DNA of 32,858 nucleotides from a virus. Lineage: Duplodnaviria > Heunggongvirae > Uroviricota > Caudoviricetes. The notes under the pieces are model-generated. The model made no database searches and was not told the origin of the DNA. It worked only from the letters and a program-made list of their open reading frames with translations. Location: IMG/VR virus record IMGVR_UViG_2802429238_000001, one strand, 5' to 3'. This document shows, piece after piece, positions 7,204-8,854 of the stretch (position 1 is its first letter; each line of letters begins with the position of its first letter). The translations under genes were made by a program, and so were the position numbers.

Positions 7204-7480
7204 TGGCAAAAATTCACGAGGTAAAGCTGCACGCAAAATATTTCGACCTTGTGCTGGAAGGAAAGAAACGCGCAGAGTTTCGGAAAAATGACCGTAATTA
7301 TGAGCGCGGGGACACGTTGATTTTGCATGAATGGGTGCAGGGTGTGTATACGGGGCGAAAGGTTGAAGCCCGGATAACAGATGTTACTGACCTGTCAGAC
7401 TGGCTGGAAGATTATGTCTTGCTAAGTATTGAGCTGCTTAATACAGGCGCATATGAGATTGTGAACTGGAAAGAACTTAG

Positions 7481-8676
7481 GGAAGGTGCGAACAAGTTCC
7501 TGATATGAGATCATCATATTCATCCGGAGCGCATCCCAGAGGGACATCATGAGCCATCAACTCACCTTCGCCGATAGTGAATTCAGCACTAAGCGCCGTC
7601 AGACCCGAAAAGAGATTTTCCTCTCCCGCATGGAGCAGATTCTGCCATGGCAGAATATGACCGCTGTCATCGAGCCGTTTTATCCCAAGGCGGGCAATGG
7701 CCGACGGCCCTATCCGCTGGAGACCATGCTGCGTATTCACTGCATGCAGCATTGGTACAACCTGAGCGACGGTGCCATGGAAGATGCCCTGTACGAAATC
7801 GCCTCCATGCGCCTGTTTGCCCGATTATCCCTGGATAGCGCCCTGCCGGATCGCACCACCATCATGAATTTCCGCCACCTGCTCGAGCAGCATCAACTGG
7901 CCCGTCAATTGTTCAAGACCATCAATCGCTGGCTGGCCGAAGCAGGCGTCATGATGACCCAAGGCACTTTGGTGGATGCCACCATCATTGAGGCACCCAG
8001 CTCTACCAAGAACAAAGAGCAGCAACGCGATCCGGAGATGCATCAGACCAAGAAAGGCAATCAGTGGCACTTTGGCATGAAGGCCCACATTGGTGTCGAT
8101 GCCAAGAGTGGCCTGACCCACAGCCTGGTCACCACCGCGGCCAACGAGCATGACCTCAATCAGCTGGGTAATCTGCTTCATGGAGAGGAGCAATTTGTCT
8201 CAGCCGATGCCGGCTACCAAGGAGCGCCACAGCGCGAGGAGCTGGCCGAGGTGGATGTGGACTGGCTGATCGCCGAGCGTCCCGGCAAGGTAAAAACCTT
8301 GAAGCAGCATCCGCGCAAGAACAAAACGGCCATCAACATCGAATACATGAAAGCCAGCATCCGTGCCAGGGTGGAGCACCCGTTTCGCATCATCAAGCGG
8401 CAGTTCGGCTTCGTGAAAGCCAGATACAAGGGGCTGCTGAAAAACGATAACCAACTGGCGATGTTATTCACCCTGGCCAACCTGTTTCGGGTGGATCAAA
8501 TGATACGTCAGTGGGAGAGATCTCAGTAAAAACCGGAAATAACGCCAGAAATGGTGGAAAAAATAGCCTAAATAGGCTGATTCGATGTGTTTGCGGGAAA
8601 AAAATCGGCCCAGATCCGCGAAATTTTAATCAGCGAGTCAGCTTGGGAAGAAATGACCTGCTTATTCGCACCTTCC
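7481..8676 (+). mobile_element. IS5-family insertion sequence
   Basis: Terminal inverted repeats GGAAGGTGCGAACAAG (7481-7496) and CTTATTCGCACCTTCC (8661-8676, one mismatch); flanking 4-bp direct repeat TTAG at 7477-7480 and 8677-8680; encodes a 326-aa DDE transposase. Confidence 0.9.
7549..8529 (+). CDS. insH: IS5-family DDE transposase
   Basis: 326 aa, [35 protein letters not shown].. recognised as IS5 InsH-like. Confidence 0.9.
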
Positions 8677-8854
8677 TTAGTGCGCGTGGTCTGGTATTTA
8701 GAATTAATCATGAAATTATGCATCAGCTCGGCCTTGCTATTATGTATGAACCAGATACGGGGCTGTCTGGTGGGGCAATGGTTGCTGTGGATGGGATGTG
8801 GAACTATTCAGATGAACAGATGGAGCGTGCACAGCAAAACGGGTGGCCTGGATA

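Follow-up and report, generated by a model that had tools for sequence, protein, structure and literature searches.

The DNA analysed here (the window; 32,858 nucleotides, IMG/VR record IMGVR_UViG_2802429238_000001) carries a P2-like prophage of Escherichia coli. Directly after its replication gene A, an insertion sequence (IS) that we assign to ISKpn26 separates two pieces of an accessory gene, a homologue of P2 orf91 coding for a DUF3850/ASCH domain and a DUF7415 domain. From the start of gene A to the end of the split gene, the following features were located.

4918 to 7203, plus strand: replication gene A (gpA, 761 amino acids (aa)), matching P2 gpA at 97.5% over residues 1-761 and Pfam Phage_GPA at 2.6e-123
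7203 to 7480, plus strand: 5' fragment of the split gene (codons 1-92 and 2 bases)
7477 to 7480: left copy of the TTAG target-site duplication
7481 to 8676, plus strand: ISKpn26 (IS5 family, IS5 group), 1196 bp, its transposase co-oriented with the phage early operon
7481 to 7496, plus strand: left inverted repeat GGAAGGTGCGAACAAG, 16 bp
7549 to 8529, plus strand: DDE transposase, 326 aa
8661 to 8676, minus strand: right inverted repeat GGAAGGTGCGAATAAG (minus-strand reading), 16 bp
8677 to 8680: right copy of the TTAG target-site duplication
8681 to 8855, plus strand: 3' fragment of the split gene (codons 93-150 and stop, most of DUF7415), without a start codon of its own

In agreement with an earlier note, which was made from the sequence alone and described 16-bp terminal inverted repeats and a 326-aa DDE transposase at these positions, the repeats pair at 15 of 16 positions (GGAAGGTGCGAACAAG against GGAAGGTGCGAATAAG, the reverse complement of 8661-8676). 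Their pattern occurs at two places only in the window, 7481-7496 and 8661-8676, where 0.05 would be expected by chance. The transposase matches the Pfam families DDE_Tnp_1 (1.6e-35) and DUF772 (3.3e-21) as well as the NCBIfam model of IS5 family transposases, NF033581, the latter scoring 367 bits (cut-off 140) over profile positions 1-285 of 285.

The identity of the element was examined by a megablast search of complete E. coli genomes: copies annotated as ISKpn26 by the Prokaryotic Genome Annotation Pipeline (PGAP) are 99.9% identical to it at 100% coverage. More than 1800 E. coli records, chromosomes and plasmids, hold such copies, all of them labelled 'IS5-like element ISKpn26 family transposase'. 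From the copy of E. coli S42 the element differs by one C/T exchange at IS position 1016, which is synonymous, and its transposase shows no differences to the S42 ISKpn26 transposase WP_000019445.1. Its length of 1196 and the position of its open reading frame (ORF), 69-1049, agree with the tabulated ISKpn26 entry (PMC8796155). The name was compared through the PGAP-annotated copies and the tabulated length and ORF. The 326-aa ORF layout, the 16-bp inverted repeats and the 4-bp duplication are likewise those of ISKpn26, and structurally no difference was found; what is new is the insertion site, an accessory gene of an E. coli prophage. ISKpn26 is the ISfinder name of an element first described in Klebsiella pneumoniae, and it is mainly known for the disruption of mgrB in colistin-resistant Klebsiella.

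IS5 in the strict sense, that is the IS5 of K-12, was considered and rejected. By ISfinder convention, isoforms share about 95% DNA identity or more, whereas the element and IS5A of MG1655 are 91.1% identical over 1197 aligned columns and differ in length (1196 against 1195 bp). The two have the family and the architecture in common, a left inverted repeat identical over 16 bases, the Py-T-A-Pu target and the 4-bp duplication, and their transposases agree at 321 of 326 residues; activation mechanisms were shown for IS5 itself (glpFK, bgl, flhDC, fucAO), and for ISKpn26 or the present site they would be putative. Hence, the family named in the earlier note stands (NF033581, duplication), while IS5 proper does not: judged by its sequence, the element is ISKpn26, a separately named member of the IS5 family. 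The intact transposase ORF and the intact ends suggest that it is competent for transposition.

The proposed TTAG target-site duplication is perfect on both flanks of the element. TTAG is found among the IS5 targets taken from ISfinder (3 of 24 sites; consensus Py-T-A-Pu; PMC5493358), and the target used here agrees with this preference. To locate the empty site, positions 7081-7480 were joined to 8681-9080 and used as a query against E. coli and phage genomes. Coverage reached 80% or more in 345 chromosomes of E. coli and in 23 phage records, and the top matches cross the junction in one piece with 95-97% identity. The IS-free prophages of E. coli CUPF09 (L001), AR_0081 (L004) and E94 (L005) have a single TTAG, within GGAAAGAACTTAGTGAGCGTGG, at the same point, and the duplication is therefore real. 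At the empty site of all three, the PGAP annotation has a 'DUF3850 domain-containing protein' of 150 aa, and its start overlaps with the stop codon of the gene for the replication endonuclease; the intact ORF of about 150 codons, which had been reconstructed without relatives at hand, thus exists in prophages that lack the IS. The AR_0081 prophage also has the same downstream genes as the window and is effectively its IS-free counterpart.

With the IS and one TTAG removed, 7203-7480 and 8681-8855 form one open frame of 150 codons, the start of which at 7203 overlaps with the stop codon of A. Pfam places DUF3850 at residues 4-76 of the restored protein (6.5e-18), which bears out the ASCH/DUF3850-like N-terminus suggested before, and DUF7415 at residues 86-128 (2.7e-14), crossing the insertion junction. 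Residues 1-148 are colinear with positions 1-149 of the 150-position profile of phrog_1812 (E = 1.5e-79), and PDB entry 3iuw, a stand-alone ASCH protein of 83 aa, aligns to residues 3-78. In a large protein collection the two-domain form of 151 aa predominates, with clusters of 126, 510 and 662 members (about 1300), and homologues from Salmonella and Enterobacter (154-156 aa, ~51% identity) keep both domains. The IS lies within codons 92-93, inside the most conserved motif of DUF7415, NWKEL/SERGLVFRINHE (the slash marks the insertion point), where W89, E91, L92 and G96-N102 are invariant alignment columns. AlphaFold2, run on a full-length homologue with a 10-sequence alignment, gave a predicted local distance difference test score of 75-89 for the ASCH domain and below 55 for DUF7415. 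A sequence search of DUF7415 against PDB chains returned nothing significant, and among the papers searched for DUF7415 none mentions the domain.

P2 Orf91, which belongs with phrog_1812, corresponds to this gene in its position overlapping the stop of A and in its first 74 residues, which are 97% identical. Unlike the window gene, which is split by the IS, it diverges after residue 74, because the tin/old cargo of P2 begins inside the gene, and has no DUF7415. P2 Orf91 is naturally a DUF3850-only protein, and therefore such proteins exist in nature. Homology of the window to P2 ends at ~7424 (P2 30540), inside the orf91 gene and after codon 74; going by this alignment, the left boundary of the P2 tin/old cargo is within coding sequence, and the C-terminal tail of P2 Orf91 is unrelated. 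A separate observation concerns three E. coli proteins (P0017, P0018, P0034) in which DUF7415, with the same linker, is fused to Cox-like (PF10743) instead of ASCH N-termini. This suggests that recombination at the hotspot edge shuffles the DUF7415 module.

We put the probability of the following reading at roughly 90%: a recent hop of ISKpn26 into an accessory gene of a P2-like prophage, with a TTAG duplication and the consequences set out below. In this reading, a copy of ISKpn26 transposed into TTAG at codons 92-93 of the accessory gene after A in a P2-like E. coli prophage, and the insertion produced the usual 4-bp duplication. The target was the common 150-aa two-domain form of P2 orf91, with an N-terminal DUF3850/ASCH and a C-terminal DUF7415 domain. 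The event is real but ordinary, as the element, its target preference, the duplication and the hotspot locus are all of known kinds, and gene disruption by insertion sequences is textbook biology. Beyond annotation its significance is small; if the isolate can be obtained, it offers a natural mutant in a conserved accessory gene of P2-like phages.

The recent date, also assumed in the earlier note, is in line with the distribution of the junction. A 361-nt query found the junction spanned nowhere in 5,426 complete E. coli genomes, and the exact junction strings were absent from GTDB species representatives, IMG/VR and JGI metagenomes. It is known from one assembly, E. coli GCA_012294745.1 (contig AASDKW010000006.1; a 2-kb stretch was compared and is identical), the source contig, which was recovered by way of the protein of the chimeric ORF described below. 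Because the IS is nearly identical to other copies, the duplication is perfect and the junction is confined to a single assembly, the comparison points to a recent insertion that is private to one isolate.

Four features downstream of the transposase gene or overlapping its end bear on what the insertion may do.

8511 to 8855, plus strand: chimeric ORF with a putative product of 114 aa, initiated at a GTG within the right IS end and continuing in frame through the 3' fragment
8855 to 9061, plus strand: conserved 68-codon backbone ORF (phrog_11386), its ATG overlapping the stop of the split gene as TAATG at 8853-8857
9067 to 9106, plus strand: stable hairpin, 6 nt past the stop of the 68-codon ORF, without a T tract, between the backbone genes and the cargo of low guanine-plus-cytosine (GC) content
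9267 to 10917, plus strand: hotspot cargo of two genes (9267-10022, ~243-251 aa; 10219-10917, 232 aa), GC 33-42%

The interrupted ORF terminates at a TGA (7506-7508) within the left end of the IS. Its truncated product has 101 aa, 92 native residues followed by REGANKFLI, and retains the entire DUF3850/ASCH domain. The earlier statement that the insertion inactivates the gene is hence right for DUF7415, which is destroyed, and goes too far for the ASCH part, which is kept whole in a product resembling the DUF3850-only Orf91 of P2. The stop of A (TAA 7201-7203) and the ATG of the next gene (7203-7205) overlap as TAATG at 7201-7205, and this overlap is intact, 278 bp upstream of the IS; the proposed interruption of translational coupling from A is not supported. 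Read from the sequence, the coupling severed by the IS is that of the split gene to the 68-codon ORF (8853-8857). We infer that the gene now gives at most a 101-aa ASCH-only protein, still coupled to A, that the function of DUF7415 is lost, and that the 68-codon ORF has lost its coupled translation and is translated at a reduced level. In CUPF09, AR_0081 and E94 the 68-codon ORF is annotated beside the intact 150-aa gene.

The chimeric ORF is recorded in the source assembly as 'hypothetical protein' FHD44_12390 with a Pfam DUF7415 match, and the protein (P0033) is encoded on a single contig, that of GCA_012294745.1. FHD44_12390 would be either an annotation artefact or a chimeric product of IS and gene fragment. 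For the annotation, this entry is to be corrected to a chimera of IS sequence and a gene fragment, and the gene after A to an interrupted DUF3850/DUF7415 gene.

Transcripts that start in the left end of IS5 cross the whole element and drive the downstream fucAO (PMC11894529). By analogy, transcripts from the early promoter probably pass through the IS, which has the same orientation, and polarity on the downstream genes is likely partial.

For the viability of the prophage, all P2 proteins were compared with the window by tblastn. Full-length matches were obtained for Q, P, O, N, M, L, X, Y, K, R, S, V, W, J, I, FI and FII, and also for E, T, U, D, Ogr, Int, C, B and A; the match to Cox covers residues 9-79 at 38% identity, and H and G show the mosaicism expected of tail-fibre genes. 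From the integrase to ogr the prophage spans ~31.8 kb with the IS, compared to 33.6 kb in P2. P2, which serves as the plaque-forming reference, lacks homologues of the DUF7415 part, of the 68-codon ORF and of the cargo. Because P2 does without DUF7415 and the 68-codon ORF, and the essential P2 genes are full length here, viability is probably unaffected, and an impairment of replication, packaging or plaque formation by the insertion is probably not to be expected. The insertion would thus probably be a recent hit in non-essential DNA, neutral or mildly deleterious, and not an adaptive rearrangement.

Several points weigh against this account. Absence from databases reflects rarity and gives no age. 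The two halves of the gene have diverged unequally: the 3' fragment (175 nt) is 91-93.5% identical to 349 E. coli homologues in complete genomes and the 5' fragment ~99%, corresponding to 15-16 differences per 175 nt and 2-4 per 278 nt, respectively. In the 3' part, 8 codon changes are nonsynonymous and 4 synonymous, compared with 0 and 3 in the 5' part, and two of the replacements in the 3' part, E94A and L149P, hit near-invariant columns. Such divergence could mean that selection has been relaxed for longer than 'recent' implies. Furthermore, the evidence for read-through comes from IS5, which is 91% identical in DNA to the element here, and the consequences for product, coupling, read-through and growth are all inferred.

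The unequal divergence, the ratio of codon changes and the two replacements at near-invariant columns would all be explained if the insertion were old and the split gene a decaying pseudogene, with the 3' part diverging under relaxed selection afterwards; in line with this, no copy in a complete E. coli genome exceeds 93.5% identity to the 3' fragment. We nevertheless regard an old insertion as unlikely. The IS is one synonymous base in 1196 away from another copy, its duplication is perfect, the junction occurs in one assembly only, and the 3' fragment contains neither a stop codon nor a frameshift. The 205-nt spacer directly downstream is 99.5% identical to relatives, so that a local decay of 8.6% in situ is implausible. 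Four of the variant residues, I113, D118, L121 and M132, are found again in the alleles P0002, P0004, P0011 and P0020 of the domain, as expected for a pre-existing recombinant allele. Since these variants are shared with other alleles and the adjacent spacer is conserved, the 3' divergence more likely represents a recombinant allele that predates a recent insertion, possibly with some relaxed selection.

Whether the insertion could matter for its surroundings depends on the region in which it lies. The variable region between gpA and the portal gene gpQ of P2-like phages (the tin/old locus, next to cos) is a defence hotspot (Rousset et al. 2022, PMC9122126). The insertion site, described before as adjacent to a cargo hotspot, is inside this region, between gpA (4918-7203, plus strand) and gpQ (11248-12282, minus strand). 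As is typical of the hotspot, low-GC genes downstream of the IS fill it; the cargo has no match in PADLOC, Pfam or NCBIfam, which leaves a defence role putative, and the IS hit a conserved backbone gene at the edge instead of the cargo. In particular, the three downstream proteins (cargo and 68-codon ORF) and the restored gene gave no match in PADLOC-DB, no Pfam or NCBIfam family matched the cargo, and the two cargo genes match unnamed PHROGs only (phrog_3403 and phrog_16957); by these three resources no recognisable anti-phage system is present in the cargo. The gene arrangement is already on record, without annotation, as an entry 'DUF3850/ASCH + hypothetical x3' with three of the four AR_0081 protein accessions in supplement file 6 of the hotspot survey (Rousset 2022, PMC9122126). 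The cargo is variable, being present in AR_0081 and absent in CUPF09, and starts ~590 bp downstream of the IS, past the 68-codon ORF and the hairpin. The hairpin is contained in an 81-nt stretch (9050-9130) that folds with -32.7 kcal/mol (z = -3.5). The first 56 nt of the hairpin spacer are identical in the cargo-less prophage of CUPF09, which places the hairpin on the backbone side of the boundary of the hotspot.

A second, independent IS was observed in the cargo region of E. coli E94 (NZ_CP119740.1, ~4020-5076) and also of E92. This IS903-like element of ~1057 bp has the ends GGCTTTGTTGAATAAAT and a 9-bp duplication ATTTTCTAT, as seen by BLAST and direct reading in E94. The 232-aa cargo gene has its homologue directly downstream of this insertion, annotated there with a shortened product of 217 aa. 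The window provides one example of insertion sequences in the P2 gpA-gpQ region, and E92/E94 a second.

An adaptive insertion, either through altered expression of the 68-codon ORF or the cargo or through a beneficial loss of DUF7415, has only a slim chance of being correct. It draws on the activation of neighbouring operons by IS5, which proceeds in several ways, one of them a transposase-promoter fusion with read-through of the element (PMC11894529), and on the co-orientation of the IS with the downstream genes, the in-frame ORF 8511-8855 that leads from the IS into the 3' fragment, and the second IS in the same cargo region of E92 and E94. However, the insertion is a single occurrence that does not recur at the site in 5,426 genomes, and the distance of ~590 bp to the cargo includes another ORF and a strong hairpin. 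A promoter and terminator scan of 6800-11300 gave 4 promoter-like sites where 7.0 were expected from shuffled sequence, a count below chance and therefore uninformative. Any effect of the IS on cargo expression is conjecture. The more specific proposal, that the insertion separates ASCH from DUF7415 and that read-through from the IS or the early promoter usefully changes the expression of the 68-codon ORF and the cargo, is decidedly unlikely as well; if it were true, the isolate would be a natural knockout or regulatory mutant that reveals the role of the orf91 family at the edge of the P2 hotspot.

That the target was a single gene was examined against a native arrangement of two genes, with the IS in between or at the first gene's end. 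Phage Wphi (NC_005056.1) seems to offer such a case, as its annotation has gp91 (93 aa) and gp92 (64 aa) at the same position, and the earlier note had named two separate genes in relatives as the observation that would undo its reconstruction. In addition, P2 Orf91 is DUF3850-only, and DUF7415-only protein calls are present in the database. However, at 3340-3470 Wphi carries single-base insertions in homopolymer runs compared to all other sequences, with 7 extra bases over 800, and its three frames jointly read the same protein as the intact gene. As the gp91/gp92 split is caused by single-base indels, it does not refute a single gene, and the reconstruction stands; the indels are frameshifts, quite possibly sequencing errors in the 2003 record. 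Moreover, the fusion of 150/151 aa is dominant by cluster size and recognisable at ~51% identity across genera, the match to the DUF7415 profile already starts at residue 86, before the insertion point, and the most conserved motif crosses the junction. The two-gene arrangement, which we consider very improbable, was rejected.

An assembly artefact is hardly conceivable: the source is a draft assembly (AASDKW010000006.1) and IS copies are a classic source of misassembly, but the IS is internal to a 293-kb contig, and a precise 4-bp duplication of a canonical target along with the two exact halves of one gene is not what a misjoin would produce.

Some further observations concern the prophage outside the hotspot. 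Compared with P2, the Int, C and Cox proteins (1078-2931) are 53%, 53% and 38% identical, respectively, which implies that immunity and integration specificity would differ from those of P2. The prophage adjoins a pflA-like radical-SAM gene at 249-1046. The slots that hold orf30 and Z/fun in P2 are empty, with 66 and 132 bp, respectively, between the flanking genes (20428-20495 and 26123-26256).

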